Source: Haplodiscus bocki
Lineage: Eukaryota
Reading direction: 5' to 3'
DNA: 64,000 bases
Assembly: GCA_965655095.1 (NCBI GenBank)
Contig: OZ296651.1
Location: 12,524,001-12,588,000, forward strand
Numbering within the stretch: the stretch's first letter is position 1; the number at the start of each line of letters is the position of its first letter. The notes below the pieces were generated by a model. The model was not told where the DNA came from. It saw nothing but the letters and a program-made list of their open reading frames with translations, and searched no databases. The translations under genes and the position numbers were made by a program. Shown here piece by piece: positions 31,768 to 61,560 of the stretch.

Positions 31768-31967
31768 NNNNNNNNNNNNNNNNNNNNNNNNNNNNNNNNN
31801 NNNNNNNNNNNNNNNNNNNNNNNNNNNNNNNNNNNNNNNNNNNNNNNNNNNNNNNNNNNNNNNNNNNNNNNNNNNNNNNNNNNNNNNNNNNNNNNNNNNN
31901 NNNNNNNNNNNNNNNNNNNNNNNNNNNNNNNNNNNNNNNNNNNNNNNNNNNNNNNNNNNNNNNNNNN
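31768..31967. other. Assembly gap (200 N)
   Basis: Run of exactly 200 N. Confidence 1.
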
Positions 31968-35129: not shown

Positions 35130-37370
35130 ATTTAAGTGTCCAGACCTTTGAGCAAAAAAATACCGTTGATACTCCATCCTTTCTTCACCCCCAACCATGA
35201 CCAATAATTGCGCTACCTGCAAGAAGGCCATTAATGCTAATACCAAAAAGTACGTCTGTGTATCGTGCAATGTGCACTTGCATCTCGAACCGAGCTTCAC
35301 AGGGCTCTCTCCAGTGGCAGTCAGTAGCATCATGGAGCTGGGACAGCTTGCAATGCTACTCTGCAACAACTGTGTGAGCATTAATGAACGCGATAACTAT
35401 AAGATGCCGATCAATTGAGAGAATGAACGAGAAAATAAAAGCAGAAACGCACGGAATTAATGAACGTTTTCAGAAAATGGAGACACGATTAACAGCATGT
35501 GTGGACGGAAAAGTAGACATGTCATCAAAGCAACATGAGAGAAAGTGGACAAAAGCTATGCTGAAGTCTTGGCCTTTCAGCCAAAAGAAACAAGCAACCC
35601 CCATACTCGGGCACCAACGAGAACGATGTCTGATATAGATCTCAACATCCGAAAGAGTGTAACAATTCAAGGGGTACCAGAAGACCCTGAGAAATAAAGC
35701 TGAAAATCTTGTCCCCACGATCGACGCGGTGAACAGGTTACTTGAAGGAATGTGCGTGACGTCCCACATAACTGAACTACGACGACTTGGGTCTTAGCAA
35801 AGGCATGTGAAAGAAGACATGATCTGAAGGACAAAGGTATTTTTGTGCTGCCGGCTTTCTTTAAAGAAGATTCAAGAAATGAAAACTTGTGCCTCAAAAA
35901 ACGACCTCAACTTCTCGAGCAAAATGTGCCGCGTGAAAAATTCAAGACTCGCAATCTAGAGCTCTACAACGACGGAGTCAAGGTGGCCCTTGAGGACCCG
36001 GTCAACGAAAGCTGACTAGGGTTTCTGAACGTTCTCCAAATGAATGCCGGAAGTCTCGTCATCTTTGATCGGAGAATGAAGTTCGCAAACGCCATAACAC
36101 TTTCTGACTATGACGTTGTTTGTTTTTCCGAGACCTGGTTAAACGAAAACATAGAGTAAGCTGAAATGCTTCTACAATACTAGACTTTATACCACTCAGA
36201 CGGAAAACTAAAAAAAGATATGAACATCCATGGTGGTGTTATGGTAGCAATGAAGAACCGCGTCAACTCTGAACTGCTAAAAACTGATCAACCTGACTGC
36301 TCACTGACTTTCAAGCTCACTGACTTTCACAAGACAGCTAAAAGAATCAGTGCCATGTTGCACATTATCTGGAGGAACATAAAACGTCTCCGAAAGTAAC
36401 CAAAAAACTGTGAAATTGCCGCTATCACGCCAATTTTCAAGAAAGGCGGTAAAAGACTGGTGGACAACTAACGGCCCGTTTCGCTGCTTTACATACACAG
36501 GAAATTTTTTGAGAAATGTTTATATAGAGTCTTGTTCGACCATTTCGTGAAGTTCCTGACCAAGCACCTGCATGGCTTTGTCCGGAAAAGATCAGTGACG
36601 ACAAACATACTGACTTTCCTCCAAAAAATCCACGAGGCATTAGACAGAAACTCAAATGATGACATAACCATTATTTATTCTGACTTCTCGAAAGCATTCG
36701 ATAAAGTGCCGCACAAAAAGCTTCCACAAAAATTGAGCCAAATGTGAGTAGGAGGCTGCCTTCTAGATGTACTCTATGATTATCTGGAAGATAGGAAGCA
36801 GTTCGTCCGAGCAGACAACACCAGCTCCAAGGTTCTATCAATAACCAGTGGAGTTCCGCAAGGGTCTTTGCTAGGACCGCTATTGTTCTGTATTTTCAAC
36901 AACGATTTAGCAGTCCTTCGTTTTTGTGAACCCTCTGTTTGCGGATGATTCTAGCAAAATATTAGCAATCGGTCACAGTCAAAGTGACGTTCAAATTGAC
37001 ATCGGTGCAATCGACTCTTGGGTTAGAACAAACCACATGGAACTGGCAATTGATAAGTGTTCAGCGCTGAAAATTCGAGGAACAGAAAAGGAATTCCACC
37101 TCGCTGGAAAACCTTTAAAGACTGACAGTGAGGTTAAGGATCTTGGAATAACTGTTGGTATAAACGGTTCATGGACAGCTCACATAAATGACAGACTGAA
37201 AAAAGCTAATCGAGTTTGCTTTAGTATCAGGAGAAATGTAGCATTCAAAGTGAATACTTTGATTAAACTCGGATTATACAAATCAGTTATACTACCGATC
37301 CTGCTCTATGGACTCAATTGCTTAACACTAGCCAAATGTGACTTTCAAAGTCTGGAAAAAATTTGTCCAG
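35130..37370 (+). mobile_element. CR1/L2-group LINE remnant: PHD-type ORF1, AP endonuclease (internally deleted) and reverse transcriptase
   Basis: ORF1 'CATCKK...CVSCNVHLH...LLCNNC' and 'TIQGVPED'. EN 'QMNAGSL...DVVCFSETWL...HGGVMVA'. After a deletion at ~36330, RT reads 'PIFKKG...RPVSLL...HGF...DFSKAFDKVPH...SGVPQGSLLGPLLF...LFADD...KDLGI'. Stops and frameshifts are present. Confidence 0.9.
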
Positions 37371-37449
37371 GAAGACCGAAGGTCCAAAAATTCTTCCTAA
37401 TTTATATCTGTGGTAGTCGATCTATATACGGTATAAACGGTAATTCTTG

Positions 37450-37601
37450 GTACGTGTTGGAAAACCTTAGTGGACGTCTGTTAGTGCGGTCAAAAATTTT
37501 CATAAAAGAACAAACTTCGTATTCATGCTGAGTTCTTCAATCTTAAAAAATGAACTAAGTATCTTAGTAGTCAGATTTTTCTAATAAATTTTTTCTTTCA
37601 G
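37450..37601 (+). other. Putative 5'-UTR intron / splice acceptor of the MFS gene
   Basis: GTACGT at 37450; branch-like CTAAT at 37581; TTTTTTCTTTCAG ending at 37601. The acceptor is well supported; the donor is a guess. Confidence 0.45.
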
Positions 37602-37690
37602 ATGAAGCGTCATTGTAGAAGCTCAGTTATGTAGTCCTAGCTACAGTGGTTATTTAATCCTTTTAATGGGAAGTAAAAATTCGTGAAACA

Positions 37691-39067
37691 ATGGCTCGAC
37701 GAATTCCCAGAAACACGCTGCTAATTTCTTTTGGCTTTGTATTTGTTTACAGTGCCTTCGACAGTCTTACCGACATAGAGGAAGCTATTATTGAAGGTTA
37801 CAAAAAGGATGGTCATAATTTCGCAGGTTCAGGATACTATGTATTGGCAGCATTCAACATTGCTTTTGCTGTTTTTGCTTTTACTGTTCCTTTAATCATA
37901 GACCTGATAGGTTTTAAAAAGTCGCTCCTCATATCAGCACTAATTTTTCTTCTATTTATGGCTTCGAATATAGTACCCATCGACTTTGTTGTGTATCCTT
38001 TTGCATGTCTTTGTGGTCTCTGCACAAGTTTGTTGTGGTCTTCGGGATTTGCGGTGTTGTCTGCGTCTTGCGAACGTCAAGATGTTGCATTAAATGCGAC
38101 AATTTTTTACTGGTCTGCTCAGTTTAGTTACTGTGCAGGAAGTCTTTACATCTTCTTAGTGACTTATTTTTCTCCAACTACTTCGGATTATGTGACGAAG
38201 CGAGACAGAATTCTTTTTACATGCGGCTTCACTATCTTTTCATCATTTTCCTTCATCTTGTTTCATTTTGTAAAAGTTCCAACAGAGAGGCTTTTGTCAT
38301 CTGATTTAAAAACTAGCGTCTCCACTTCTTTACAAGATGCCAAAAACAATGTTTTATCCTTGGTAAAGAACTTGAACTTTTCTGCCATCTTTCTGATATT
38401 TCTATTCACTGGAATTAGCCAGAGTTTCATGACAGGAGTTTACAGTTCTTGTATGATTCATACTTTAGATTTCAACAAAAATGATATTGATGCAAAATCA
38501 ATGGTCGGTCTTAGCGGCCTGTTGTTAGGAGCTGGAGAAATTGTATCAGGTTGTGTCAAAACTTTGCTGCTATGGAGGACTCAATCTCCAAGAGTTCGAG
38601 AGATGTTATGTTTACTTGCCTATACTGTATTTAACACTTCTCATTATCTTATTTATATCAACTTGAAAGACAATTCTCCCTATGAAAACACACATGGTTC
38701 AACTTTATTTGCCACTCCCAATCCATATTTGGCAGTGACGTGTTCCTTCCTGATCGGATTGGCCGATTTTGTCTACCAATCAGAGCTGTTTGCAATTATT
38801 GGAGAAGTATCTGGCAGTAATGAGAAAAAAGCAGCCGTTGCGACCATGTTTTACAGCTTTCTCCAAGGTGTTGGTGGAATGTCGGGTTTTATCTACGCTG
38901 GTAACTCAGGTTTGATGTTTCAGTTGGCGGTTTTGGTAGTCATCAATTTCTTCTGTATTCTAATTTTCATTCTCAGAGATAAATCTAGAAGTGAAGGACC
39001 TTTCAGACCCGGACACACATTTGCAAATGAAGAAGGTGGCGTTGAATACAGCCCCTTCTCTGATTAA
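37691..39067 (+). CDS. MFSD11: UNC-93-like major facilitator superfamily membrane protein (MFSD11-like), 458 aa, single coding exon
   Basis: The only long intact ORF, with ~12 hydrophobic segments. MFSD11-like motifs: 'GSGYY', 'LCGLCTSLLWS', 'AKSMVGLSGLLLGAGEIVSG', 'CSFLIGLAD'. Confidence 0.88.
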   Translation: MARRIPRNTLLISFGFVFVYSAFDSLTDIEEAIIEGYKKDGHNFAGSGYYVLAAFNIAFAVFAFTVPLIIDLIGFKKSLLISALIFLLFMASNIVPIDFVVYPFACLCGLCTSLLWSSGFAVLSASCERQDVALNATIFYWSAQFSYCAGSLYIFLVTYFSPTTSDYVTKRDRILFTCGFTIFSSFSFILFHFVKVPTERLLSSDLKTSVSTSLQDAKNNVLSLVKNLNFSAIFLIFLFTGISQSFMTGVYSSCMIHTLDFNKNDIDAKSMVGLSGLLLGAGEIVSGCVKTLLLWRTQSPRVREMLCLLAYTVFNTSHYLIYINLKDNSPYENTHGSTLFATPNPYLAVTCSFLIGLADFVYQSELFAIIGEVSGSNEKKAAVATMFYSFLQGVGGMSGFIYAGNSGLMFQLAVLVVINFFCILIFILRDKSRSEGPFRPGHTFANEEGGVEYSPFSD

Positions 39068-40367: not shown

Positions 40368-41935
40368 TTTTTAAAATACATTTTGCTGCATTTTTATTGA
40401 ACATGGCAGTCTGCTGAGTGATTGGTCTTCACAATAATTTGTTCTTTGTCATGTACTGAAACAATAGCTTTGGTTGAGTTCAGGAGAAACGAACTGGATT
40501 TTTGAACCCGAAATGCCTTGGGATTTAAACAGATTAATTATGCAAAATGAACTTTGAAGTATGTCAATTTTTTGTTCATACCGTTGAGTTAAACATTAAA
40601 GAAAGATTGAGCAAGAAAACGACCAGCTCAGACCAGTCACAACTCGGATATAGATTTCTCTTTCAACCAAAACAGGGTTGTGTCCACGCTTTCAAAGTGT
40701 CCGCTCATCAGCCCTCTGCAGTTGTGATGCACATAGTATTCATCGCCTGAAGAGAACTAAATAAGTTGATGAGAGGAAGGAAACAATCCTATCATGCAAT
40801 ACAGAGAAGGACTATCCCTTTTGGGGTAAAGAGCCCGCTTCTGCTCTCTACTAACCAACCGCTGCCCTGCCTTCGTTATCCACATCCAGTTCCACGTCAT
40901 CCACATGTAATTCCATATACACAGAGCTGTGAGCTCAAAACAAGCAAAGATTGGCAGTATCCATGTAAATTGACACTGAATAAAAATATTGTCTGACGTT
41001 TTGTGGATACAAAATTTTGCTTAGTATCCCCTTTCCAATTTGAAGCGAGTGATTTAAACTGGAGAATTGAGGCTGGAACTTCAATAGACGTGTGCTGATT
41101 TTGCTCAACCTTTTGAATCAGTCCATTGAAGGAAACATTTTATTAGGGGTAGCAGACTGGGCAACAGTTGAGACAGCTTTTGAACAATTCAGTAACACTT
41201 GGAGGTTTACCTACAGACTTGGATTTCATTTTGTCCCGCATGACTGTTGATGAGATGTTCCAAATACGATGCATTTAGATAGACGTCGGCGAGTTCAAAG
41301 CGGGGTATGATGCAGTTATTTTTATATTGTTTCGAGTTTCCATCACTTTCATTGGCGCGCGCGTTCTTTTTATCAGTTCCAAATTTAGTTTGAATCGTTT
41401 CCACTTCTAACAATTCTCAAATTGCTGTGGTTGTTTTTAATTGACTTCAAGTTTCAGTCCTTTCCCAGTTGTAAGACTTTACTGTATTCTTTAGTGGCTA
41501 TCTTCAGCGCGTGGAATGAGGAAAATTTTATTGAAGATGTGAAGAATTTATTTCAAGAATGCAGTCAACTTTTCAGTAGCAATCCCAAAAAGGCGCTCTC
41601 CAAATCTCTTATTTACAACTTGATATTTTATAATTTACTCTGTCTATTTTTTGTCATCAAGTGGAATTTATAATTCAATAAAAGTTTCTCTTCAATATGT
41701 CTTCTTCGCATTTAATTTCCGTTCGGTTATTGTATATTTGTTTCTTGTCCACTAGTTTATTAGTTGTCTATTTCTCTGGACATTAGTATTTCCGATCAGG
41801 CGAGGTTTCGTTGTCTTTCAAACTTCAAGAAATTTAATAGCGCCAAGATTTCATAATTGCAATATTGATCAAATTAAGATCATGCTTTTGTGCATTGTAG
41901 AATATAGTTCATAATAAAATATTCATCAGAATATC
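40368..41935. repeat. LTR-like direct repeat, copy 1
   Basis: Matches 55045-56610 (offset ~14675). ORFs 41422-41673 and 56097-56348 are identical. Canonical PBS/PPT/TSD were not found. Confidence 0.75.
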
Positions 41936-42175
41936 ACACTAGCCGACTTTAAGTTGATTTCCCTTGCTCTAGTTTTGTTGCAGTAAATTTTTTCCTTGCT
42001 TCCGTGCAAGCTAGCTTTTCTTAAACTCGGTGTATCTGTCAATTTGGATGTGCATATGTAGGTGCACTTTCTTCTTGTCTTGTTTCTATCAGTTGTGATT
42101 CGGGTAGTAGTGGACTTTGATTACGCAATTGAAATTTCTCATCATTTTGTACACGATACAAATGTTGGTCTTCTG

Positions 42176-44141
42176 CTACCACAATCGGTTTGAGAGGGAT
42201 TTTTGGTTATGCAGCTTGTGAGAGAAGGGTTGAAATCTCTGAAAATTTTTGTAGCGATGTAGTGCCAACATTCCAATAACCAAATGACTTTTCCACGATA
42301 AATACTTATTGAATTGTTTCTCGATTGAAGGCTTCAGCATTTTTAGTTTCTTTGCAATGTGTTCAGCTATTTGTTGAATTTTCTTTTTGTAGCCATATTG
42401 TGGTTGAGCTTGATGTTCGAGTTTGATAGACTTCAGTAGTTTCATTTTGCTTCCATTTTCGTGTTGTAGTAAGGTAGTTCATCCACTGTTGGTAGTAGGC
42501 TGAACAGGTTTGCCATTGGTTTAGGTAGTTCCACGTCCAGTGTGATTGGCGGAACTTTGGCACAAGACGATATGTCAGAACGAATTGTGATGTTTTATCC
42601 AGTTAACTGTTCACCACATTCTAGAGTTATTAGACAAATTCTCATCCCTTTACCGTTTTTGAACCTAGGGCTGTAGCGTCCATATAGTTCTCTTTGAATC
42701 GAGGTTGTCTTGGGCTGATGTTATGAGCCATATGCCATACACCAGATGTGTTGCCTCGACTTTCAGTGGTAGTGGAACTGGTACTCTTTCACACACTTCT
42801 AGCGCATCCGTAATAATTCCAAAATATAGGGTTGCAAGGCAGGACGAGTATTTATTTTCTGTTGCTAAAGTTTTACGACAAATTCGGTACTTGCTTGAAC
42901 CATTACATTTGTCAAGTTGATTTCTTGTACCCACGAAGTTTCCATCAAATTCTTCGATACTGCCAGATAATCAGCTTCGACATTCCATTTGATACCCATG
43001 TCTTCATCCATTTGGGGTAGAGATACCACTATTGCTTTGTAAACTGTGAATGCTGATTGTCGAGAAGCAATTGGAATTACCGTTGTCATCAGAAGACCAT
43101 CGTCCAGGGTCAATACATCCAATAGTAAGCGTGATTTATAATATGCCAGAAGTTCTTGCTTTGGGATGACCAATGTGAGTCGATTATCCGGCTTCTCTTG
43201 TGAGTCCTCGACTACTTTCAAATTATGTTCCGATGATTCTGGCAGTCGTGACTTGAGAACGTATTTTGAAGGAAGAGAGGGAATACCGTTCATTATGTTC
43301 ATCTTGAATGCAAATAGGGCTGCTCGATAGGCTTTAGCGTTGCTGTAGATTGGCCAAAGTAGAGAAGATAGTGTAGCGAAATTAAAGTTCACTTGTCGTG
43401 TATATTGGAATTGGCCGAAATTGCGCATTTTGTGGATCTTTTCACGGAATACTTCGAGTCGTTTCTCGATCTTTTGCCAGTTTTCATTTTGTGTTTCGAT
43501 ACCTTGGTTTTCTAGGATCATAGGTTTTCGTCGGATTTTTGAGATCTGAATGGTAAAATTTTTCGGAGAGAGGGAGAGAGGATCTCAGAATAATCTTATC
43601 GTTTGACTCAGTGTCTGGGGAGGCCTTAGGGAGTTATGGCGTTCTTCTAATCTGTCGTTTTTGTAGTCTTCGCAGTGTCACATTTTTGGAAACTATGGAC
43701 TATAGGTATGTGTCGTAAATCTTGATACTTTCTCTAAGAAGAATTGATCGTCGTTAGGCCATGCTAATATACCTTGTCGTGTGGTGCTAAATTCGGTTGA
43801 AGTGTAGAAGTTGTTTTTGTACGTACTTCTCGTTTTTCGTGACTTTCGCAGTGGCAAAATGTGGTCAATTGTTGTCCGTGGGACAGGTGTTTCCGTTGAT
43901 GTTGCATTTCGGTGCGACGAAGGGCTGTAAGCGTCTGCTCTTACACTCTATCGTATAGCAGAGGTTGTGAGCTGCGTGTTGAGCTATACTGTTTGAAAGT
44001 TGTTTAGTGATGTCTTGGGGTTCGCAGTGGCACAATCTCAGTAATTGCCGCTCTTGGAGTCTAGCAGTTTCCAGTCACACTTTTGCCCATGACCATTGTG
44101 TAAATACCTGTCCACCAAAGTGATGTGTAGAAGTTTTTCAT
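42176..44141 (-). pseudogene. env-like class I fusion glycoprotein (baculovirus-F/errantivirus/paramyxovirus-F-like)
   Basis: Signal-like start at 44141 and heptad region 'NWQKIEKRLEVFREKIHKM'. 'LLMTTVIPIA...FTVYKAIVVSLP...DYLAVS' is followed by Cys-rich 'LDKCNGSSKYRIC...SCLATLYFG...C'. A hydrophobic stretch lies near 42270. Confidence 0.75.
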
Positions 44142-44299
44142 TCCACGTGTTTTCCGGGGTGCTTTTCTTTCGTCCACTCTTGCAATTTTTTTTTATGAAG
44201 TCTCAGTTATCGTTCGAGTTCATTGTTATCTTTGGAGGTGTTTTTCATTCTTTTTGGTGGTGTTCTGCTTAGCCGTTCGTTTTCAGCGAAGTGTGGCGT

Positions 44300-44712
44300 C
44301 TGGTACAGGTTGATATTGATACTACAGACTTTTGGAATACTTCATCTAGAGTTTTGTGCACAATTGATGGTTGAAGTTTGTCTAAGCCGCATCCAAGTTC
44401 CGTTAGTCTGATATTTTTCTGTCCATGAGCCTCAGCGTGATTGCGCATCTTGGTGACGCTGTTTTTCAGGGCGTTATAGAAGGGTTGGTGAAACTATTCG
44501 GATTTCTTTACCAAATTATAAGTCCATTGTCGTCAAAATTGATCATAGAATGCGAGTACTGATCCTGGTGTTAGTTCCCTGGAAGCTCAGGTTTTCATTT
44601 GTGCGTAGTCGGTCAAATCGTTTCGCGATACCTGCTCCCAGGAAAAAATCAGAAGAAACAGAGTGTCCCGTACTAGAGGTAGTTCCAAAAAAATGGTCTT
44701 CCACTGTGGTCA
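44300..44712 (-). pseudogene. TARG1/OARD1 (Poa1p/DarG-like) macrodomain at the pol C-terminus
   Basis: 'EDHFFGTTSSTGHSVSSDFFLGAGIAKRF' [frameshift ~44590] 'PGSVLAFYDQF*RQWTYNLVKKSE*FHQPFYNALKNSVTKMRNHAEAHGQKNIRLTELGCGLDKLQPSIVHKTLDEVF'. Collinear with OARD1 (AHCISED.RMGAGIA / YLITK / KPTY..L..SL..M..H / IGCGLD.L). Confidence 0.85.
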
Positions 44713-45399
44713 TTTTCGAGGTGCTATGAGTTAGTTGGGCTTCGTTCATGTCGGTTCTACTTCGTTTTTTAGATGTTTCTTCTTGTATTGCTCCAGGTCT
44801 ATGTACGAATTGCAGTTGATGGCGACGATTGTTCAGAAGATCGACAAAATTTCTTGCTTCGACTGATTGTCTCTGATTGGCGCGTTGAGAACTGCGTGTT
44901 TTTTGAAGTTGTTGTCCCGCCTCCTCAAGAACGCGTTCGCTTGACCTACTGGTTAATTGTTCTTGTTTCCTTGTTGAGGGTCTCAGTGCTGTACTGACTT
45001 CAACATATTCGTCAGATTCCTCGGAAGATTCTAGTAATTGTGCTGTGCGGTCAGGTGGTTGTGTGGGTTTTCTCCGAGGTTGGTAAGGTCTATTGGTTTG
45101 GTCAATTGTTAATGGTTTTGCAATCACAGGTGCAGGGTCGGGTTGATTGACTGTTTCCTGTGCTGGCAGTGGTTGTCGAGGTTGTGCTCGAAAAGAAATG
45201 GAGACTCGAGCTGGGCTGTCCAAGTTCGGAGTTTTCTTTTCTGGTGAAACTTGGTCATTATCCAGAAGAGAAGGGTGACCGTTGTCGAAGAAGTCTTGAT
45301 CGCCTCTGTTATATCCCAGTGTTGGGTCTGTCTGGAAATTTTCACAGTCTGTTACCTGATATTGAGGCTTGGTTGGACGTAGTCTAATTCGGTGGACAG

Positions 45400-46480
45400 T
45401 TTGTGTATAGTTCGTTCCAATTTTTCTTTTGAGGTAACTAGAGTCGGTTAAAACTCTCCACTCTATACAGAGCCAGCCGTTTTTGGATCAGTTTTGGGCT
45501 GAAAGCTGACTGTTCGGTGAATCAGGAGTTCAAGATTAAGCAGTATTCGTTCTCTAAGGGAATTTGATCTTGCTTTTCCGTCCTAAAACCTCCTGTGTCT
45601 GTTGAAAGATTTGGTGAAGCTCTTTTGTAGTCTGGAACTTTTTCAGCATTTCATCTCGCAGGGATTCCACAAAGTCGTAATTAACTGCTGATTGCTGTAT
45701 ACAGGTAGAAGCGAATATCCACAGGCTTGTCTGGATCTCGTCCATGGAAGATCTCCGCTGGTGCGCATCCATTTGAGGTGTGATATGTGTTATGGATGTA
45801 TGTTGCCAGGTTTAGGTATTTGTGCCACTTGGTGAATGTCTGGTTGCTATTCAGTTTCAGAATGCGCGTTAGTGCTGCATGTGCCCTTTCCACCAATATA
45901 CTTGTTTGTAGGTGTTTCAATGATACCTGAGATTTTTTCTTCGACTAGTTGAGTGTGTTCATGTTAAACCTCGGACACTGTGTGCCTAAGTTTGAGAAAT
46001 TTTCCTGTAGTATATAACTGTGTTGGAACATAAGGGAAACCAGGGCTGTGGCCACCGAGATTGCACTTATTGTAGTCAGCGGTTCTGCAAATGGGTTTTT
46101 AGTGAAAACATCAATTGCTGTCAGGAGGTGCTCGTACGTTTACGTTGGAAAAGGTCCCAGATGTCTATCTGCATGAGCTCTCCTGGGAACGATTGAAATG
46201 TAGAAACTTCTTGAAGTGGTGGTCTAAGTCGTAAGGGTTGTACTTGCTTCATTTGGAGGCATTTAGAACCTGTTCTGATATAATCTGCTACTTATTCCAC
46301 ATAGTTTCGGCATTAGGAGCGTTTTCTGAGTTCCTCAATTGTTTTCGTTATTTCCAAGTGCCCTCCATTTGGGGCGTTATGTATTTTGTACATAACTTCT
46401 TTCAACATTGTTTAGGCACGCACAATTGTTTCTACAACTTTTTGCCATCGTGTGCAAAGTATCGACTGTAGAGTTTTCCA
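45400..46480 (-). pseudogene. Gypsy integrase
   Basis: 'KIHNAPNGGHL' (HHCC region), 'LGPFP', 'LTAIDVFTK' and 'LVERAHAAL...WHKYLNLATYIHNT.HTSNGCAPAEIFHGR'. Confidence 0.85.
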
Positions 46481-46889: not shown

Positions 46890-48350
46890 CTTTCATTTTT
46901 TCTGATTGGGATTCTGTCTAAGTTTCAATTCAATTGTTTCGTTCGGATTTGATTGCAAGCGAGACAGAAAATCTGCTGCAGCATTGGCTTTTCCTGGAAT
47001 GTGAGTTACCACAATGGTAACTGCTATAACTCGATCCACATAATTCCAAAGTGATTGAGGAAATGTTTGGGCTTGGACGAATCTGGTCAAACTTCTGTTG
47101 TTTGTCAGTATGAGCACTGGGTTTTTCACTTCTACATTTGAAATGAGAGAAAGTTTCCAAGGCGAAGTAGAGGGATAAGAATTCCTTGCACTATATTGAC
47201 TTTTTCAATTGCGCTGTTTTGAAAACTTTAGATCCAATTGACACGGGTGCATAACATTTAACCGTTTCTCCTCTGTTGTCTGTGACATTGTGCTCTATCA
47301 ATAATACAAATCTACTCGAGTGATAATTAGCATCACACAATGTGGCAAATTGGAGTCCTGGTTTGGCAAGTCTAAGTGTTTCCATTGTGGTAGTTTCAAG
47401 TTTGTCTCTGAGTGTTTCGAAAGCATTTTTGATCTCATCTGTAATTTCAAATGAGACATTTTTCCGCAAGAGTTTGTATAAAGCTATGAGGTGTTCGTTC
47501 AGATTAGTGATTAAACTGCGAAAGAATTGTAGGAAGCCTAATAGTCGTTTTACTTGTTTCACTGAGTTTAGTATTTCAAGTGTTTTAAAGGAATTTTCAA
47601 TTTTTTTCTTCTCAGGTTCTAGGCATTCCTCTGTTTAGACGTTTCCATGGAAGTTAACTTTTTATGGTCCCAGAAAGATTTTTCTGGCGATAGTTAGAGT
47701 GCTGATCTGCGTAAGCATTTGAGGATGAGTTGTAAATTGGGTATGAGTTGTTCAACTGATTCCACTCCACATCCAATGTCATCCATGAACTGTGCGCAAA
47801 CATTTGCTGAGAGGCATGGCTCTAAGTAGTTTCTCACAAAAGTACTGAGGCCTGTAACTGATCTGTTCAGACCTCTGGCTAATCTTTGGTAAGCCATAGT
47901 GTTGGAAGCAACATTGAATGCAAGTAGTTGTATCGAAAGGGGGTCAGCCATTTGTACACAATGGTAGGCTTGAGAGCAATCTAATTTACAAAAGATTGAT
48001 CTTTCAGCAAAATCTGCTGTTGTGTCTGCCCTTGTTGAAGTCGGGAAATTGTTGTTATGGTAATCATGCAAGAAAAGGTGATTGAGTTCTCGTGAGTCCA
48101 CTAGAATTCTTATTTTTCCATTTGGTTTGCGGTGTGCAAAGATTGGAGTGCTGTATTTTGAATGGATGAAACTTGTGATGGTTCCAAAATTTTCTAGGAG
48201 AGCGAGCTCTACTTGTAGTTCTTGACGTATGTGGATAGGCGTTGGTAAGCTTTGTGTGTAGACCGGTTGTTCATGTTCTGCGGCTAACTTCATTCGAAAT
48301 ATATCCAACATCAATTCTATGTTTAGCAAAAATATCCGAACATCCGACCA
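46890..48350 (-). pseudogene. Gypsy reverse transcriptase-RNase H
   Basis: 'PIFAHRKPNGKIRILVD', 'FCKLDCSQAYH', 'YQRLARGL', 'QFMDDIG', 'LLGFLQFFR', 'LCDANY' and 'HIPGKANAAADFLSR'. Confidence 0.9.
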
Positions 48351-51300
48351 ATAAGTCTTCAACTTGTTGCTTTTCATCCGCTTTAAGTACAGATTCATTC
48401 CATTCGGATCTTTGTAGAAATTGGTCACGGTTTTCACTGTTAATGTGGGGCGTCTATGGTGTCTAGTTCTTGTAGTTTCTGTAACTCGATGTATATCCTT
48501 CTTCCCACACTTTTCAGTGTTGTTGGATTCTGGCATGTTTCGGAAACCAAAACTTTTTGTAGTCTGGTTGGGGTCTGGGTGGCTGAGAATCTGCATTGAA
48601 TTCTTCGTCTATTACCAGCTGGTTGATTTCATTCTCAATGTCTGGATTTTTGAATTTTGCAAATGTTAGCAGTTGTGGGTCTATCGTGGTTAATGTTTCC
48701 GCTTGTTGGGGTGAGAGAAGTTTGAAATATGCAATGTCTGAATTTCGGGGAATGGTGATCTCATTGGTTTGGGGCTTTAAGGCAAGTAAGTACAAATTTC
48801 CTTGAAAGTCAGTTGGTGATATTGAAGTGATGCACCGGCCTGTTTTTTCTTCAGAACTAACTTTTGGTTCTACAATACCACATACATCAGCAAATCGTTT
48901 GTTTTCCGTTTGGAGGTTGTATTTGACGGTTGCTTTTTAGTTGGGGGATATTGAAGGGACAGGACGTCACCTTCAAGAGAAATGCATGGAGTTATTTCTT
49001 CCTCATTTTTCTCTCGTGGCTGTTGTTCATACTTGCGTGGCTTCACTCGTTTTTTGGTACACAGATCATGCACCGTTGCTGCCTGGCTCATTTTGGTCCA
49101 GTAGTTTTATTTTTGATGAAGTTTGGTATGGCGTTCGTTAAGATTTCTTTGATTCTCTTGTTTCGTTCATTAAATACATTGTCTAGTGCTGCTTGGTTGG
49201 CGTCTTGTGCGTTCTCGACACTGTCAATTTCTGCTTGTTCATTCGGCGGGTTAGCTGGCGGAATTGATGGGATTACTGAATCAGGGTAAGCGTGTGTTGC
49301 TATTATCTGCAATTGAACCAAGAAGTCTTCTGTGCTACCATTCTTGTGATCCAATTTTAGGTTGTGGAGCTGTACTTTGTGAAGTTCTCGGAGGTTTGGG
49401 TTGCAGTAATGGTTTCTCAGTGCCGTTATTGCTGCATCAATGTCATCTCTGTTTGCTTGTGGTAAAGTTCTGGAGAACTGCGGGGCTTTATCTAGTGAGT
49501 GAAGTTGAAGAAACTGGGGTCTGTTGGCATTTCGGGTATTGCCAACATTGATCAGACTTCTGAGCAGACTTTCGAAATCTGGCCAGTTCTCATCTGCTTT
49601 TCCGCTGATTGGTATATAGTGGTTGTGGATTGGCTGCTGCCACTGTCCTCGAATAGTTCTATTCCTCGCTTCCTCTTTGTGAACATGTTAAATTGCTATG
49701 GTTGTTTTTAATTGACTTCAAATTTCAGTCTTTTCTTAGTTGTAAGACTTTACTTTATTCATTAGTGGCTATCTTCAGAGAGTGGTGATCTGCGTAAGCA
49801 TTTGAGCATGAGTTGTAAATTGGGTATGAGTTGTTCAACTGATTCCACTCCACGTCCAATGTCATCCATGAACTGTGCGCAAACATTTGCTGAGAGGCAT
49901 GGCTCTAAGTAGTTTCTCACAAAAGTGCTGAGGCCTGTAACTGATCTGTTCAGACCTCTGGCTAATCTTTGGTAAGCCATAGTTTTGGAAGCAACATTGA
50001 ATGCAAGTAGTTGTATCGAAAGGGGGTCAGGCATTTGTACACAATGGTAGGCTTGAGAGCAATCTAATTTACAAAAGATTGATCTTTCAGCAAAATCTGC
50101 TGTTGTGTCTGCCCTTGTTGAAGTCGGGAAATTGTTGTTATGGTAATCATGCAAGAAAAGGTGATTGAGTTCTCGTGAGTCCACTAGAATTCTTTGTTTT
50201 CCATTTGGTTTGCTGTGTGCAAAGATTGGAGTGCTGTATTTTGAATGAATGAGACTTGTGATGGTTCCAAAATTTTCTAGGAGAGCGAGCTCTACTTGTA
50301 GTTCTTGACGTATGTGGATAGGCGTTGGTAAGCTTTGTGTGTAGACCGGTTGTTCATGTTCTGCGGCTAACTTCATTCGAAATATATCCAACATCAATTC
50401 TATGTTTAGCAAAAATATCCGAACATCCGACCAAAAGTCTTCAACTTGTTGCTTTTCATCCGCTTTAAGTACAGATTCATTCCATTCGGATCTTTGTAGA
50501 AATTGGTCACGGTTTTCACTGTTAATGTGGGGCGTCTATGGTGTCTAGTTCTTGTAGTTTCTGTAACTCGTTGTATATCCTTCTTTCCACACTTTTCAGT
50601 GTTGTTGGATTCTGGCATGTTTCGGAAACCAAAACTTTTTGTAGTCTGGTTGGGGTCTGGGTGGCTGAGAATCTGCATTGAATTCTTCGTCTATTACCAG
50701 CTGGTTGATTTCATTCTCAATGTCTGGATTTTTGAATTTTGCAAATGTTAGCAGTTGTGGGTCTATCGTGGTTAATGTTTCCGCTTGTTGGGGTGAGAGA
50801 AGTTCGAAATATGCAATGTCTGAATTTCGGGGAATGGTGATCTCATTGGTTTGGGGCTTTAAGGCAAGTAAGTACAAATTTCCTTGAAAGTCAGTTGGTG
50901 ATATTGAAGTGATGCACCGTCCTGTTTTTTCTTCAAAACTAACTTTTGGTTCTACAATACCACATACATCAGCAAATCGTTTGTTTTCCGTTTGGAGGTT
51001 GTATTTCACGGTTGCTTTTTAGTTGGGGGATATTGAAGGGACAGGACGTCACCTTCAAGAGAAATGCATGGAGTTATTTCTTCCTCATTTTTCTCTCGTG
51101 GCTGCTGTTCATACTTGCGTGGCTTCACTCGTTTTTTGGTACACAGATCATGCACCGTTGCTGCCTGGGTCATTTTGGTCCAGTAGTTTTCTTTTTGATG
51201 AAGTTTGGTATGGCGTTCGTTAAGATTTCTTTGATTCTCTTGTTTCGTTCATTAAATACATTGTCTAGTGCTGCTTGGTTGGCGTCTTGTGCGTTCTCGA

Positions 51301-53229
51301 CACTGTCAATTTCTGCTTGTTCACTCGGCGGGTGAGCTGGCGGAATTGATGGGATTACTGAATCAGGGTAAGCGTGTGTTGCTTTTATCTGCAATTGAAC
51401 CAAGAAGTCTTCTGTGCTACCATTCTTGTGATCCAATTTTAGGTTGTGGAGCTGTACTTTGTGAAGTTCTCGGAGGTTTGGGTTGCAGTGATGGTTTCTC
51501 AGTGCCGTTATTGCTGCATCAACATCTTCTCTGGTTGCTTGTGGTAAAGTTCTGGAGAACTGCGGGGCTTTATCTAGTGAGTGAAGTTGAAGAAACTGGG
51601 GTCTGTTGGCATTTCGGGTATTGCCAACATTGATCAGACTTCTGAGCAGACTTTCGAAATCTGGCCAGTTCTCATCTGCTTTTTCGCTGATTGGTGTATA
51701 GTGGTTGTGGATTGGCTGCTGCCACTGTCCTCGAATAGTTCTATTCCTCGCTTCCTCTTTGTCAACATGTTAAATTGCTATGGTTGTTTTTAATTGACTT
51801 CAAGTTTCAGTCTTCTCTTAGTTGTAAGACTTTACTTTATTCATTAGTGGCTATCTACAGAGAGTGGTGATCTGCGTAAGCATTTGAGAATGAGTTGTAA
51901 ATTGGGTATGAGTTGTTCAACTGATTCCACTCCACGTCCAATGTCATCCATGAACTGTGAGCAAACATTTGCTGAGAGGCATGGCTCTAAGTAGTTTCTC
52001 ACAAAAGTACTGAGGCCTGTAACTGATCTGTTCAGACCTCTGGCTAATCTTTGGTAAGCCATAGTTTTGGAAGCAACATTGAATGCAAGTAGTTCTATCG
52101 AAAGGGGGTCAGCCATTTGTACAGAATGGTAGGCTTGAGAGCAATCTAAGTTACAAAAGATTGATTTTTCAGCAAAATCTGCTGTTGTGTCTGCCCTTGT
52201 TGAAGTCGGGAAATTGTTGTTATGGTAATCATGCAAGAAAAGGTGATTGATTTGTCGTGAGTCCGCTAGATTTCTTTGTTTTCCATTTGGTTTGCGGTGT
52301 GCAAAGATTGGAGTGCTGTATTTTGAATGGATGAGACTTATGATGGTTCCAAAATTTTCTAGGAGAGCGAGCTCTACTTGTAGTTCTTCACTATATGAAT
52401 AGGCATTGGTGGGCTTTGTGTGTAGACCAGTTGATCATGTTCTGCGGCTAACTTCATTCGAATTATATCCAACATCAATTCTATGTTTAGCAAAAATATC
52501 CGAACATCCTACCAATAAGTCTTCAATTTGTTGCTTTTCATCCGCTTTAAGTACAGATTCATTCCATTCGGATCTTTGTAGAAATTGGTCACGGTTTTCA
52601 CTGTTATCGTGGGGCGTCTATAGTGTCTAGTTCATGTAGTTTCTGTAACTCGTTGTAAATCCTTCTTTCCGCACATCTCAGTGTTGTTGGATTCTGGCAT
52701 GTGTCGGAAACCAAAACTTGTAGTCTGGTTGGGGTCTGGGTGGCTGAGCGCCTGCATTGAATTCTTCGTCTATTACCAGCTGGTTGATTTCATTCTCAAT
52801 GTCTGGATTTTTGAATTTTGCAAATGTTAGCAGTTGTGAGTCTATCGTGGTTAATGTTTCCGCTTGTTGGGGTGAGAGAAGTTCGAAATATGCAATGTCT
52901 GAATTTCGGGGAATGGTGATCTCATTGGTTTGGGGCTTTAAGGCAGGTAAGTACAAATTTCCTTCAAAGTCAGTTCGTGATATTGAAGTGATGCACCGTC
53001 CTGTTTTTTCTTCAAAACTAACTTTTGGTTCTACAATACCACATACATCAGCAAATCGTTTGTTTTTCGTTTGGAGGTTGTATTTTAGGGTTGCTTGTTA
53101 GTTGGGGGATATGACGCATTTTTCCATTGTTCTAATAGTGTATTGAGGTTTTCCGGCTTTATCAGTTTCTTTTGATATTACGTTCAACTGAAGTGTTAAG
53201 TCGGGTAATTTCATCAGATTCTCTCTTGG

Positions 53230-53560
53230 TTAAAGTTCATTAGAGTTGCTTTTGAAAAATGGATTTCCCAAAATGATACTGCTTGTGTTTGGAAGTTCTG
53301 AGAACTGTTCTTTGAATTGTTTTTTTTTTGCTATTGAAATTTCGAGCTCGATTTGGCCACGCACAGGTATAACTTGTCCTGAAACTACCTTAACTTCACT
53401 GACTTCAGAAGGTTGTGAGATGTTTGCTGTCATTCCAAAAGGTGATTTCAGGTCCTCTTAATCTTTTTACTGATCGCATTTGCACAGACACCAGTATATA
53501 TTAAAGCTTTCCTTTGTCGGTTGTTAGGGAAATTCAGTGGAACATACGACAGGACGTCAC
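53230..53560 (-). pseudogene. Retroviral-type aspartic protease remnant (catalytic D replaced by Y)
   Basis: 'RKALIYTGVCANAIS' (ALIDTG motif mutated), 'VVSGQVIPVRGQIELEI' and 'SIILGNPFF'. Confidence 0.8.
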
Positions 53561-53649: not shown

Positions 53650-54800
53650 TTTGATATGGGATTTGTTGGTTTCTATTTGCTGTTCTCCTTTGGTTGCAAT
53701 CTCGTGCATAATAGTTCGGGTAGCCACAAAGGTAACACCTGTTTTGAATATCTCGTTTCTGCTATATGTTCTTGGTTGGTCGATTCTTGTAGTTGTGGCG
53801 TGTTATAGTTGGAATAGGAGTTGTAATTTCGGTTTTGATTGCCATTGAAGTAGCCTCTGTTGTTATCGAAGCGACCTCTTCCTTTATCATTGTTAAATCC
53901 TCGTCCTCGAAATCTTCGTTGGTTGTTGAATCTGTATTTACCTGTTTGTTGAGGATTAAAGTTGTTGTTGCGCGTATTTGGATTTTGATTGTTTGAAACT
54001 TTCAGGGTGTTGTTTCTATTGGACAGATCGGTTTGTTGCTGTTTCATTTCGTCTTGTTGCTCTGTCAGTTTTGTTGATGCTCCCGCTAAGTTTTCCGACA
54101 GTGTTGAACTAACGTCATTGAAGGCATGGGATCTCTTGTGCAGTCGTCACTTGGACAAATTTCAAAGAAAAACATTTGGCGTTTTGCAACTGTACACAGA
54201 TCTTGCACCGTTGCTGCCTCATTTTGGTCCAGTAGTTTTCTTTTGATTAAGTTTGGTATGGCGTTCGTGAAAATTTCTTTGATTCTCCTGTTTCGTTCAT
54301 TAAATACATTGTCTAGTGCTGCTTGGTTGGCGTCTTGTGCGTTCTGGACACTGTCAATTTCTGCTTGTTCAATCGGCGGGTTAGCTGGCGGAATTGATGG
54401 GATTACTGAATCAGGGTAAGCGTGTGTTGCTTTTGAACCAATGAGCAATTGAACCAAGGAGTCTTCTGGGCTACCATTCTTGTGATCCAATTTTAGTTTG
54501 TGGAGCTGTGCTTTGTGAAGTTCTCGGAGGTTTGGGTTGCAGTAATGGTTTCTCAGTGCCATTATTGCTGCATCAGTGTCATCTCTGGTTGCTTGTGCTA
54601 AAGTTCTGAAGAACTGCGGGGCTTTATCTAGTGAGTGAAGTTGAAGAAACTGGGGTCGGTTGGCATTTCGGTTATTGCCAACATTGATCAGACTTCTGAG
54701 CAGACTTTCGAAATCTGGCCAGTTCTCATCTGCTTTTCCGCTGATTGGTATATAGTGGTTGTGGATTGGCTGCTGCCACTGTCCTCGAATAGTTCTATTC
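53650..54800 (-). pseudogene. Gypsy gag remnant
   Basis: 'SGKADENWPDFESLL...FLQLH...AIMALRNHY...SPEDSLVQL...IKEIFTNAIPNLIKRKLL', then an N/R/G-rich 'RFRGRGFNNDKGRGRF' tail. Confidence 0.75.
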
Positions 54801-55044
54801 CTCGCTTCCTCTTTGTCAACATGTTGAATTGCTATGGTTGTTTTTTAATTGACTTCAAGTTTCAGTCTTTTCTTAGTTGTAAGACTTTACTTTATTCTTT
54901 AGTGGCTATCTTCAGCGAGTGGTGAGAGAAAAATTCTGTTGAGGATTTTAAGAATTTTTTTCAAGAATGCAGTCAACCAATCGGTTGCAATCCCAGAAAA
55001 GCTCTCTCAAAACCTTTTTTTTACGGCTTCATAGTTTATTCTAT

Positions 55045-56610
55045 CTTTTTCAAAATACATTCTGCTGCATTTTTATTGAAAATGGCAGTGTGCTGAATGA
55101 TTGGTTTTCACAATAATTTGTTCTTTGTCTTGTACTGAAACAATAGCTTTGGTTGAGTTCAGGAGAAACGAAATGGATTTTTGAACCCGAAATGCCTTGG
55201 GATTTAAACAGATTAATTATGCTAAATGAACTTTGAAGTATGTCAATTTTTTGTTCATACCGTTAAGTTAAACATTAAAGAAAGAGTGAGCAAGAAAACG
55301 ACCTCAGAACAGTCACAACTCGGATATAGATTTCTCTTTCAACCAAAACAGGGTTGTGTCCACGCTTTCAAAGTGTCCGCTCATCAGCCCTCTGCAGTTG
55401 TGATGCACATAGTAATCATCGCCTGAAGAGAACTACATAAATTGATGAGAGGAAGGAACAATCCTATCATGCAATACAGAGAAGGACTATCACTTTTGGG
55501 GTAAAGAGCCCGCTTCTGCTATCTACTAACCGACCGCTGCCCTGCCTTCGTTATCCACATCCAGTTCCACGTTATCCACATGCAATTCCACATACACAGA
55601 GCTGTGAGCTCAAAACAAGCAAAGATTGGCAGTATCCATGTAAATTGACTCTGAATAGAAAAATTGTCTGACGTTTTGTAGATACAAAATTTTGCTTAGC
55701 ATCCCCTCTCCAATTTCAAGCGAGTGATTTACAGTGGAGAATTGAGGCTGGAATTTCAATAGACGTGTGCTGATTTTGCTCAACCTTTTGAATCAGTCCA
55801 TTGAAGGAAACATTTTATTAAGGGTAGCAGACTGGGCAACAGTTGAGACAGCTGTTGAACAATTCAGTAACACTTGGAGGACTGCCTACAGACTTGGATT
55901 TCATTTTGTCCCGCATGACTGTTGATGAGATGTTCCAAATACGATGCATTTAGATAGACGTCGGCGAGTTCAAAGCGGGGTATGATGCAGTTATTTTTAT
56001 ATTGTTTCGAGTTTCCATCACTTTCATTGGCGCGCGCGTTCTTTTTATCAGTTCCAAATTTAGTTTGAATCGTTTCCACTTCTAACAATTCTCAAATTGC
56101 TGTGGTTGTTTTTAATTGACTTCAAGTTTCAGTCCTTTCCCAGTTGTAAGACTTTACTGTATTCTTTAGTGGCTATCTTCAGCGCGTGGAATGAGGAAAA
56201 TTTTATTGAAGATGTGAAGAATTTATTTCAAGAATGCAGTCAACTTTTCAGTAGCAATCCCAAAAAGGCGCTCTCCAAATCTCTTATTTACAACTTGATA
56301 TTTTATAATTTACTCTGTCTATTTTTTGTCATCAAGTGGAATTTATAATTCAATAAAAGTTTCTCTTCAATATGTCTTCTTCGCATTTAATTTCCGTTCG
56401 GTTATTGTATATTTGTTTCTTGTCCACTAGTTTGTTAGTTGTCTATTTCTCTGGACATTAGTATTTCCGATCAGGCGAGGTTTCGTTGTCTTTCAAATTT
56501 CAAGAAATTTAATAACGCCAAGATTTCATAATTGCAATATTGATCAAATTAAGATCATGCTTATGTGCATTGTAGAGTATAATTCATAATAAAATTTTCA
56601 TCACAATAAT
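55045..56610. repeat. LTR-like direct repeat, copy 2
   Basis: Matches 40368-41935. Confidence 0.75.
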
Positions 56611-58699: not shown

Positions 58700-61560
58700 C
58701 TTGATTTTATTGTACGAGGTTTAAAATAAATTGGGGTTATATTTTCGAAACCAAAATTAGCAAATACTTTGAAGACAGGGCTGCTCTTAAATATGGACGA
58801 ATCAAATGAGAAAGTTACAGAACTCTCCAATGCAAGTGAAACCAAAGTTAATGCAAACGATGCATCAATTGGCGAGAAACCTGGCGAACGCTCAGTCCTA
58901 GTACGATTTGCCCGAAGAGCTGGGAAACAAGATAACTTTCGAACAAAGTAGGATATGTAAATGTGAAAGTATTCGAGGATTTAACCGCACCTAGAGTTCC
59001 GTTTTTCAACCTATCAAAGACTAATTCCACAGTTTCTTCAGAATGGACACAGTTTTTTATGTGTGGAAAGAATACAACAAAATCTATTTTGTACGTGGAC
59101 TTTACGAACGTGGCTCCTTCCTACAAAACAGTTCGAATGTAATGATGTGGTGTTCCTACCCACGAGATTTCTTGCAATCACTTGCTAGCCCACCGAATGT
59201 AACTAACCCTGAAAAATCTGATAAGTTTCTGTCATTGCTTTGTCTCAAAGTACATTCTTTGAAAAAACATCTAGAAAACTTCGAAGCACTAGTATTTTGC
59301 CTTGAGTCTCCCCCTCTCGTTCTCTGTCTGACCGAAGTATGGCTTACAAAAATTTGTAATGATCAAAGTCGCGTAGCCGCGTACACGGAATTCGAAGCTA
59401 GCAATAGATCGAACCGCTAGAAAGGTGATCTGATCCAAGTGAGAGAAAGTTGCAATATTATATGAAAGCCCGTTTGAGGGGAGCATTTTTGTGCTAATGT
59501 ATGCCTTCGGTTTTTGGTTCCGACTGCTTGGCATTTTTAATCCACCCTTAAACAACAAAAATGATTTTATTTATTTTTTTATCGTTTTCTGGATAGAATA
59601 ACGTCAGAGAGAATTCCCACCATAGTTTGAGATTTTTCCATAGTCGTAAGACCAATTAATTTTCGATGTCAAAAAATCTTCTTGCTATAGAAGTAATTGG
59701 CTCTAAGATGATATCAAGCGAGGCTACGAGAATAACGCATAGTTGACGAATTTTTTCGATCACGTTATAACCGAAGACTTTGAATGCAATGTTAATGTTC
59801 TCAAACAGCAAACTTTTCTGACCATGAAGCTCTTTCAGTTACGTGGAATGCACACAAGACAAACCATTTTTTCATTTTTAAGGGATTTCTCATTCCTCGA
59901 AACGGCCGAGATGTTGGAACGGTACTCGCAAATGCTTTCACAGGAACTATCAGACGCCAGTGAGGACATAAAAATCAGTGATAGCCTAAACAAAGCATTC
60001 GATTTTTCCAAAATTGCAACCTCAAAGTAAGTCATGACTTCGCCCAATATAGAGAAACAAATTACCGAAGTGGTATAATAATCGGAACGAAAAGTTAATC
60101 GTTAAGAGAAACGTAGTTCATAGGCAGTGGAAAATTAACCGGTCTAACGAAGCACTTCTAAGCTTCAAGCGCATTGGGCAGTGAACAGAAACTGAAACTA
60201 AAAAGACCAAGAAATATGCTATTTGAACGAATTTGAGAGTTGCGTAGGAAAATCAAAGCGTATTTATAAACTGCTGAATTAAATGGGAGGGCAAAAACCA
60301 ACGAGCAGCCATATGCCTATGCTAAATTTGATCACATCACAAATTGAAAACCTTACATCGAAATATATTGCTAACCAAGTAACGAGTTTTATACTGATAT
60401 CGGCGATTCGGTGACACAGGATCTGCCAAAGTTAAATCCTATTCTGCTAGAAACAATGCATTTTTCGTTATAGAACAAACCGTAGCGTAATTGAGAACAA
60501 GTTTTCGTCTTGTAATGATGAATCACATGATGTTATACTCAAGAGGTTGAGTATTATCGCTGTGCCTTATGAAACTGACCTTATCAATCTTTCATTCAGA
60601 CATCCGGAAAAAGCTGAAATTTTCCTAGTCACTAGAAATGGCTCTAAAACAGACGAGGACAATTACCGGCGAATATCACTCCCTAATGCTCGTAACAAAA
60701 GTTTTGAAAGGGTCAGGAACAAAAGACTTTACTCATACTTCAAAAGTGAATATCTGGTGGTATTCCTCAGGGATAAATCCTACGGGCACTTTTCTTTCTT
60801 ATATTTATATATGACTACCCATAATTTCAAAACACACTGATTTTTTGCGATCGCTGACGATACAAATGTTACTGCTTTAAAACAAACAACTGAAACATAG
60901 CTTTTGATTTAATGGAACTCTAGTTGGCTTAGTGCGAATAAGGTGGTAGTGAATATAAGTAAGACTTCCTAAATGTCAGTAGGGCCTAGTTCATCGAGTA
61001 CTTTACCACACCCCTTTTCCATTAGTAACCCGGTCCCAACAATAAATATCTGGGAATAACAATTGTTTCAAAACTCTATTTAGTCGCATATTGATTCAGT
61101 TGTGGGGACTCGGAAAACCGAGTTGAGTTCTATGTAAGCTTAGGCAATATATACCCGGAAAACATTTGATAGACTATTGCAAATCCAAAATAAATGCTAT
61201 TCTCCAGTGTGGTGGCCTGGTGTTTAGTTGCAGTAGTAGATCAAGTTTACTATAATCATCCTGCAAAAGAAAATTTCAAAAATCATTTTAGCAAGACAAA
61301 ACAAGATCACATTGAAAACCTAGCTGTTTTTAATGACATGTTAACTCTTTACCAATTTAATTTTTTGGAACTGCTGAAATTCATAATGCGATCTTCTACA
61401 AAAAGCCGTGGAAAAGTATACATAAGCGAACTTTTTGGTTGTAAAACTTCAAATAGGTCCACCAGTAGATCTGATCAAACTGTTTTTAAAGTTCTGTCGC
61501 TCTACCAGATAGTCATCCACGTTTCAAATGTTTCGCTGAGAGACCTCGTTGATGATATTT
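58700..61560 (+). mobile_element. Decayed CR1/L2-group LINE (ORF1 end, endonuclease, RT)
   Basis: ORF1 'RSVLVRFARR' and 'VFEDLT'. EN 'VHSLKKHLENFE...VLCLTEVWL'. RT 'DEDNYRRISLP...KSFERV', 'GIPQG*', 'IADDTN' and 'KYLGITI'. Confidence 0.75.

Follow-up and report, generated by a model that had tools for sequence, protein, structure and literature searches.

A macrodomain behind the integrase of a Gypsy element

We analysed a stretch of 64,000 nucleotides of Haplodiscus bocki DNA (assembly GCA_965655095.1, contig OZ296651.1, positions 12,524,001 to 12,588,000 of the forward strand), hereafter called the window, in whose own coordinates all positions are given. The window is repeat-rich eukaryotic DNA with a G+C content of ~37%. 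Its minus strand carries an element of ~16 kb, flanked by two direct repeats of 1,566 bp, in which a macrodomain of the TARG1/OARD1 type follows the integrase of a Ty3/Gypsy-type pol. From high to low coordinates, the element comprises gag-like remnants, a decayed protease region, reverse transcriptase (RT), RNase H, integrase, a linker, the macrodomain, a stretch without matches and an env remnant. All of the features lie on the minus strand:

55,047-56,608, minus strand: 5′ terminal direct repeat, resembling a long terminal repeat (LTR), 1.57 kb; 96.9% identical to 40,368-41,933
54,827-55,039, minus strand: leader preceding gag, of which each terminal repeat contains an 84.5% copy
53,673-54,844, minus strand: putative gag-like open reading frame (ORF) remnants, assigned from position; no Pfam gag match
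53,101-53,560, minus strand: putative decayed protease region; motif by eye only, no Pfam match
51,861-53,112, minus strand: first copy of the 5′ part of pol as far as the RT core; 66% identical to P0020 residues 1-395
47,696-51,870, minus strand: two extra tandem units of 2,082 bp (5′ part of gag plus 5′ part of RT), 94-97% identical
46,920-48,293, minus strand: RT and RNase H, broken; RVT_1 E 1.6e-9, 70-77% identical to P0020
45,260-46,411, minus strand: integrase (zinc finger, core and C-terminal part), broken; 75%, 70% and 54% identical to P0016
44,708-45,259, minus strand: P/S/Q/T-rich linker, an open stretch of ~185 codons that shares its frame with the N-terminal part of the macrodomain
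44,305-44,716, minus strand: TARG1/OARD1-type (ALC1-like class) macrodomain with one frameshift and three stops; equivalents of Lys84 and Asp125 retained
43,545-44,095, minus strand: ~550 bp without a match in six-frame searches, at the expected place of the 5′ third of env
42,030-43,539, minus strand: broken remnant of an F-type env, comprising its C-terminal two thirds; env profile columns 208-729
40,368-41,933, minus strand: 3′ terminal direct repeat, pairing with 55,047-56,608

The domain is of the TARG1 type

A profile built from 10 natural macrodomains was run on the six frames of the window. Columns 3-39 matched 44,716-44,606 (independent E-value, iE, 5.6e-7) and columns 39-140 matched 44,610-44,305 (iE 1e-31), so that the profile covers ~137 codons; no second macrodomain match was found in the six frames, where the next best candidate had an iE of 1.1. 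The N-terminal part shares its frame with the integrase's C-terminus and the linker (ORF 44,543-45,487, 67% identical to P0016 over 300 residues). The motifs GAGIA (44,638-44,624), YNLVKK (44,520-44,503) and GCGLD (44,394-44,380) were located where the initial annotation had placed them. That annotation had counted one frameshift and two stops; the single frameshift, near 44,607, was borne out, and the stops in the C-terminal half number three (~44,589, 44,535 and 44,496).

When this C-terminal half was searched alone, with X placed at the stops, it matched only human TARG1/C6orf130 among PDB sequences (five sequences with E ~1e-9, the best 8e-10; next E 0.86). Between the Lys motif and GCGLD the alignment with TARG1 contains no gap, and the Lys and Asp residues are spaced by 41 residues, the same as Lys84 and Asp125 in TARG1, whose numbering we mapped by hand from this spacing. 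A Pfam scan of the C-terminal half gave no match. Indeed, Pfam applied to the window's own fragments overlooked macrodomain, env and integrase, all of which were recovered by searches against PDB and with relatives.

Unbroken relatives gave the same picture. P0004 matched TARG1 with E 7e-22 and DarG with only 2e-3. An AlphaFold model of P0003, built from a 62-row alignment, reached a predicted local distance difference test (pLDDT) score mostly >90 across the domain, and its top 8 PDB matches were all TARG1, with a root-mean-square deviation (rmsd) of 1.3-2.0 Å (1.3-1.5 Å for crystal structures) and 36% identity; DarG came next (E 4e-11). A single-sequence fold of P0007 yielded a pLDDT of 38. 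The MacroD-type domains of alphaviruses and coronaviruses ranked 24 or lower against the P0003 model (9-16% identity, rmsd 4-5.5 Å), and no MacroD-type match appeared in the sequence searches with the C-terminal half and P0004. The viral folds closest to the model belong to invertebrate RNA viruses (Kadipiro, virga-like and flavi-like). With matches in both profile and PDB searches, the proposal of a complete macrodomain after integrase and linker, and its assignment to the TARG1/OARD1 type, were upheld; we regard the identity of the domain as virtually beyond doubt.

Integrase, linker and macrodomain share one frame in related elements

A search with the C-terminal half returned two longer proteins among 94 candidates, whose clusters comprise 14 members. 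P0016 (957 residues) is a single frame that starts with the end of RNase H, continues with integrase and linker and closes where the macrodomain ends, P0004 and P0010 contain part of the same single-frame layout, and P0178 (1,338 residues) extends from RT to macrodomain in one frame, its integrase core being 66% identical. Altogether, in at least eight natural proteins from several subfamilies, the macrodomain is encoded in one frame with integrase or linker. The copy analysed here is itself rearranged, with tandem units, a replaced 5′ part of env and odd terminal repeats, as might be expected if the macrodomain were a one-off capture, a nested insertion or an assembly artefact confined to this copy. 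Such an origin is extremely improbable given the number of natural one-frame fusions over several subfamilies, among which P0016 and P0178 already refute it. The fusion of the macrodomain to Pol behind the integrase, as first proposed, is shared by unbroken relatives and almost certainly represents a feature of the family.

The rest of pol places the element. P0178 displays the Ty3-type order RVT_1, RT_RNaseH, RT_RNaseH_2, Integrase_H2C2 and rve, with which the window is collinear; P0016 contains Integrase_H2C2 and rve, and P0004 has a weak Integrase_p58_C match. The RT motif FMDD lies at 47,789-47,778, and the RT of the family is 28% identical to a Gypsy-type Pol of Athalia rosae. Together with the env remnant described below, the element is an env-bearing Ty3/Gypsy retroelement. 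This genomic copy is dead, with 18 stops across six overlapping alignment segments to P0016 in addition to several frame changes.

An F-type env remnant lies in the same element

The env was analysed with a profile of 733 columns built from 22 proteins. In the window it covers only columns 208-729, the first ~207 env codons being missing, and neither signal peptide, furin site nor fusion peptide of env was found anywhere in the window. The remnant is 72-73% identical to P0179 and P0180 and 61% identical to P0181, and its divergence from these relatives is about that of pol from P0016. P0180 passes the Pfam Baculo_F cut-off (E 5e-6), P0181 and P0183 possess a furin site, a hydrophobic fusion peptide and a transmembrane (TM) helix, and the Atlas neighbours of P0181 are Baculo_F and paramyxovirus F clusters (Baculo_F/Fusion_gly) at 0.95. 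The env is of the F type. A comparison of P0181 with PDB sequences gave no match, and an Atlas search with the window's env fragment, which returned only lipid-transfer-protein look-alikes of low recognition, was rejected. The description of the element as env-bearing stands insofar as an F-type remnant belongs to the same element; an intact env is not present in this copy.

The homology to pol ends at ~44,272 and that to env begins at 43,539, ~730 bp downstream. The initial annotation had an env-like gene starting ~160 bp downstream of the macrodomain, which is unsupported because the ~550 bp at 44,095-43,545 match nothing: no env, macrodomain or convincing Pfam match was obtained there in six frames. 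Three candidates in this stretch were discarded, namely a second macrodomain (weak match, E 0.006; the macrodomain profile gives -0.3 bits), a RE_Bpu10I match below cut-off and an HNH-like motif seen by eye and without support. By eye, a pyrimidine tract followed by AG at the lower end of 43,545-44,095 resembles a splice acceptor.

A further, modest sign of a link between macrodomain and env came from P0214, whose read-through tail (residues 314-357) fits residues 1-43 of env P0181 in a shifted frame, ~95 codons past the end of pol. For three env targets the tail scored above 60 of 60, 59 of 60 and 60 of 60 shuffles (z 2.9-4.5); of six env control windows, one came up to 18 bits, the tail itself scoring 20.5. 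Ungapped versions of the shifted-frame test were weaker, and the ungapped profile had its best match elsewhere (4 of 200 shuffles). No pair of env and macrodomain proteins was traced to the same contig among the cluster members listed (env 15/38 and 15/31), which counts against a join of the two. This damaged copy and the P0214 signal thus weakly suggest that intact family members may join the macrodomain to a full env.

The putative catalytic pair is retained while the pocket drifts

We compared the identity to P0016 of the macrodomain with that of the neighbouring linker. In three deeper comparisons the macrodomain was the better conserved: 62/134 (46%) versus 58/183 (32%) in P0178, 74/134 (55%) versus 65/169 (38%) in P0028, and 80/134 (60%) versus 62/161 (39%) in P0030. 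Within the clade of post-integrase domains, in which path lengths reach ~2 changes per site, the catalytic Lys was retained in 26 of 27 rows and the Asp in 26 of 26, and the G-I-A of the pocket was mostly retained. In these alignments, the predicted catalytic Lys/Asp pair has therefore persisted through deep lineage divergence.

Several observations weigh against selection on the domain. In closer subfamilies the macrodomain was not clearly above the linker (window, 70% versus 65%; P0024, 60% versus 59%; P0214, 79% versus 84%; P0042, 53% versus 51%). The adenine-binding Asp was retained in only 4 of 20 post-integrase rows versus 69 of 81 other, mostly cellular rows; for the conserved Trp that follows GCGLD, the corresponding counts were 10 of 25 and 107 of 110. 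Moreover, the 27 rows include six near-identical copies, and conservation is inflated because the query whose similarity was used to collect the rows itself carried both motifs. That these pocket positions (the adenine Asp, and the basic residue and Trp around GCGLD) take part in binding is our assumption.

The near-equal divergence of macrodomain and linker in close subfamilies, together with the drifting pocket residues, is what would be seen if the domain were a tolerated passenger, that is, an old capture of a host gene riding in frame, with its function lost or fading in this subfamily. This account has to explain why the macrodomain exceeds the linker in the three deeper comparisons, why the fold is intact in the P0003 model, and why the catalytic pair is retained over a clade with such long paths; we consider it distinctly unlikely. 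To judge from the alignments, the macrodomain has very probably been kept by selection. The fact that the catalytic pair outlasts the binding residues argues for catalysis, and the macrodomain is probably an active hydrolase.

TARG1-type domains occupy several positions in retroelement polyproteins

A representative search recovered 389 proteins at E <= 0.001, the best 150 of which were used; retroelement contexts were assigned by Pfam on 65 selected proteins and by pairwise comparison. P0021 and P0022 carry a TARG1-type domain before an RT that is 26-29% identical to that of this family, P0017 has three macrodomain copies after a Retrotrans_gag domain, P0055 has a macrodomain after a retroviral-type protease and P0067 after RNase H, and Athalia rosae XP_048515211 bears two copies between RNase H and integrase. 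A TARG1-type domain is also found in P0151, a polyprotein that is BEL-like by eye only. TARG1-type domains thus occupy several polyprotein positions in Gypsy lineages. Counting P0017, P0021/P0022, P0055, P0067, P0163 and P0151, there are five or more positions other than that in the window, some of them in tandem with degenerate extra copies. Outside retroelements, a TARG1-type macrodomain lies within DNA ligase III, ahead of the BRCT domain, in seven eukaryotic rows (P0018, P0139, P0069, P0076, P0080, P0149 and P0164), and phages have only distant stand-alone homologues (16 records; 29-35% identity among the matches listed).

In a quick tree of 150 domains taken from 174 matches (18 short ones and six near-copies were dropped, and 12 identifiers had been excluded beforehand), the 11 post-integrase rows fell on a single branch with a Shimodaira-Hasegawa-like approximate likelihood ratio test (SH-aLRT) support of 98. 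A careful tree of 46 rows supported the post-integrase branch with 91/58 only and left the backbone open. The number of captures is not fixed by these trees, since a single clade of all 16 retroelement rows was not rejected (approximately unbiased test, p-AU 0.065).

Possible roles of the macrodomain

According to published work, TARG1 uses Lys84 and Asp125 and reverses thymidine-linked ADP-ribose on DNA (PMC9411070), removes Asp/Glu-linked marks from proteins and marks from nucleic-acid ends (PMC7050489, which gives the catalytic residue as Glu125, versus Asp125 in PMC9411070), and reverses base-linked marks on RNA (bioRxiv 2026.03.31.715305).

In active elements, the macrodomain would be made as part of Pol and so be packaged into the particle. 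There it would accompany the reverse-transcription and pre-integration complex, whether tethered to the integrase or released by the protease. By analogy, it would most likely strip ADP-ribose laid by host transferases from the RNA, complementary DNA (cDNA; ends or bases) or proteins of the element; protein-, end-, thymidine- or RNA-base-linked marks could each block reverse transcription or integration, and their removal would counter host restriction. The varied positions of the domain in distant Gypsy lineages are compatible with a function that depends on packaging and not on one particular place. A particle-borne ADP-ribose eraser countering host ADP-ribosylation is, by this analogy, the best explanation that we can offer, with about an even chance of being correct, and whether counter-defence would be its main purpose is similarly balanced.

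The place of the macrodomain directly behind the integrase also fits an active eraser serving as a repair helper, which would remove PARP-derived ADP-ribose from the gapped intermediate of integration, or from the ends of the cDNA, and so allow integration to be completed. TARG1 interacts with PARP1 and relocalises upon DNA damage (PMC7050489), and the seven cellular relatives fused to DNA ligase III point in the same direction. However, in other lineages the domain is found within Gag, ahead of RT, or in the interval from RNase H to integrase, and it is general knowledge that most Gypsy elements integrate without a macrodomain. We consider the repair role unlikely, if the strongest of the competing accounts.

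Gypsy elements often have a chromatin reader fused at their C-terminus (bioRxiv 2021.11.30.470311), and the ALC1-like class includes readers (PMC7050489). Like a chromodomain at the same position, the macrodomain could therefore bind ADP-ribosylated chromatin and steer integration to damaged or open sites, with catalysis being incidental. The varied positions argue against tethering, as domains distant from the integrase in other lineages could not tether, and the catalytic Lys/Asp pair is better retained than the adenine-binding Asp. A reader is accordingly somewhat less likely than a repair helper. Overall, we favour the counter-defence eraser, followed by the repair helper, the reader or tether and, last, the passenger.

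Comparison with known systems

Human TARG1/OARD1/C6orf130 shares its fold (36% identity to the P0003 model) and its Lys-Asp spacing with the macrodomain described here. In contrast to the human protein, the domain is here the last one of a retroelement Pol, and substitutions are frequent at the adenine-binding Asp and on either side of IGCGLD, at the basic residue ahead of it and the Trp behind it. The macrodomain of the antitoxin DarG, the second-best fold match, shares the catalytic Lys and lacks the Asp partner (PMC9411070); the NCBIfam DarG model gave E 4e-10, far below its cut-off, and a DarT-like partner is absent here. Coronavirus Mac1 and alphavirus nsP3, described as viral polyprotein domains that counter PARP-mediated restriction, offer a functional analogy, with different catalytic residues and the remote structural relationship given above. 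We take these two to be of the MacroD type.

Env-carrying Gypsy elements with an F-type env are widespread (PMC13524379). The gag-pol-env organisation and the order RT, RNase H, integrase are shared with such Ty3/Gypsy elements ('errantiviruses' sensu lato, PMC13524379) and with Oikopleura Tor, and in the unbroken relatives the F-like env likewise has a furin site, a fusion peptide and a TM helix; the env of this copy is without its 5′ third. The term 'macro' does not occur in the main text of PMC13524379, and among the matches listed from its supplement (4 of 10 places) it stands only within species names; it is likewise absent from PMC4402516 (Tor elements) and PMC5408684 (extra ORFs of rotifers). 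Macrodomain ORFs in epsilon-like endogenous retroviruses (ERVs) of fish are noted in PMC4977317, citing Basta et al. 2009. As described there, these ERVs are likewise retro-transcribing, env-bearing and endowed with a macrodomain, but they belong to Retroviridae and not to Gypsy, and their macrodomains are additional ORFs. Fusions of chromatin readers to Gypsy elements have also been described (bioRxiv 2021.11.30.470311).

No description of a TARG1-type domain fused to a Gypsy integrase was found in the literature searched, a search that lay outside most subscription journals, Repbase and Dfam. Insect LTR proteins presumably bear Poa1p-like macrodomain annotations. As macrodomain ERVs and env-bearing Gypsy elements are already in print, these results suggest that the integrase fusion is the new part. 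The suspected novelty of the exact combination would therefore hold for that fusion, for which no earlier report was found in the literature searched, and not for singularity, because other Gypsy lineages, invertebrate RNA viruses and fish ERVs also have macrodomains.

Condition of the copy and surroundings in the window

A clear TG...CA pair, a target-site duplication, a primer-binding site and a polypurine tract were not found at the terminal repeats. Within these repeats, which are otherwise ~5% diverged, a block of 500 bp shows no differences and may reflect gene conversion or assembly collapse. Each 2,082-bp unit consists of the 5′ part of gag, a 100-bp piece and the 5′ part of RT, and is 94-97% identical to the main copy; the lower unit runs on into RNase H. 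The units possibly derive from a deleted sister element or from an assembly duplication. Between the protease region and RT, ~140 codons (48,514-48,936 and its repeats, minus strand) are conserved in P0020 without a Pfam match and may represent a further accessory domain.

The single clear host gene of the window is an intronless, open UNC-93-like gene of the major facilitator superfamily (466 codons, 37,667-39,067, plus strand; UNC-93 E 1e-45), and the 3′ repeat of the element ends 1.3 kb from it. A tandem array at 15,186-24,313 consists of ~3.3 units of 2.79 kb that are 94-97% identical, with no convincing Pfam match in the two ORFs scanned. Decayed pieces of non-LTR retrotransposons lie at 35,170-37,531, 5,413-5,775 and 59,025-61,562, all on the plus strand, and hold a zinc-finger ORF and RT (RVT_1 E 8e-8), a PHD ORF (E 1e-6) and, by eye, fragments resembling long interspersed nuclear elements. 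An assembly gap, a run of 200 N, occupies 31,768-31,967. No Pfam match was obtained in 12 frames of the terminal repeats and 3′ flank, nothing was found with Rfam at 39-58 kb of the window, and ARAGORN detected no tRNA in the window.

Biological relevance

Retroelements rarely retain an enzyme domain of 140 residues without use. The occurrence of a TARG1-type domain, catalytically complete to judge by its residues, at varied positions in several Gypsy lineages suggests that ADP-ribosylation exerts a pressure on invertebrate LTR elements. Should the domain be inactive or drifting, the finding would amount to no more than one further host domain captured by a transposon. If the enzyme prefers nucleic-acid-linked marks, the host would be predicted to possess a transferase tagging the RNA or cDNA of retroelements. 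Tentatively, and as a rather doubtful generalisation, TARG1-type domains may be recurrent erasers of invertebrate LTR retroelements, placed at five or more positions because animal hosts ADP-ribosylate retroelement RNA or cDNA in an undescribed defence. If this were true, DarT/DarG and coronavirus Mac1 would have a counterpart among retroelements.

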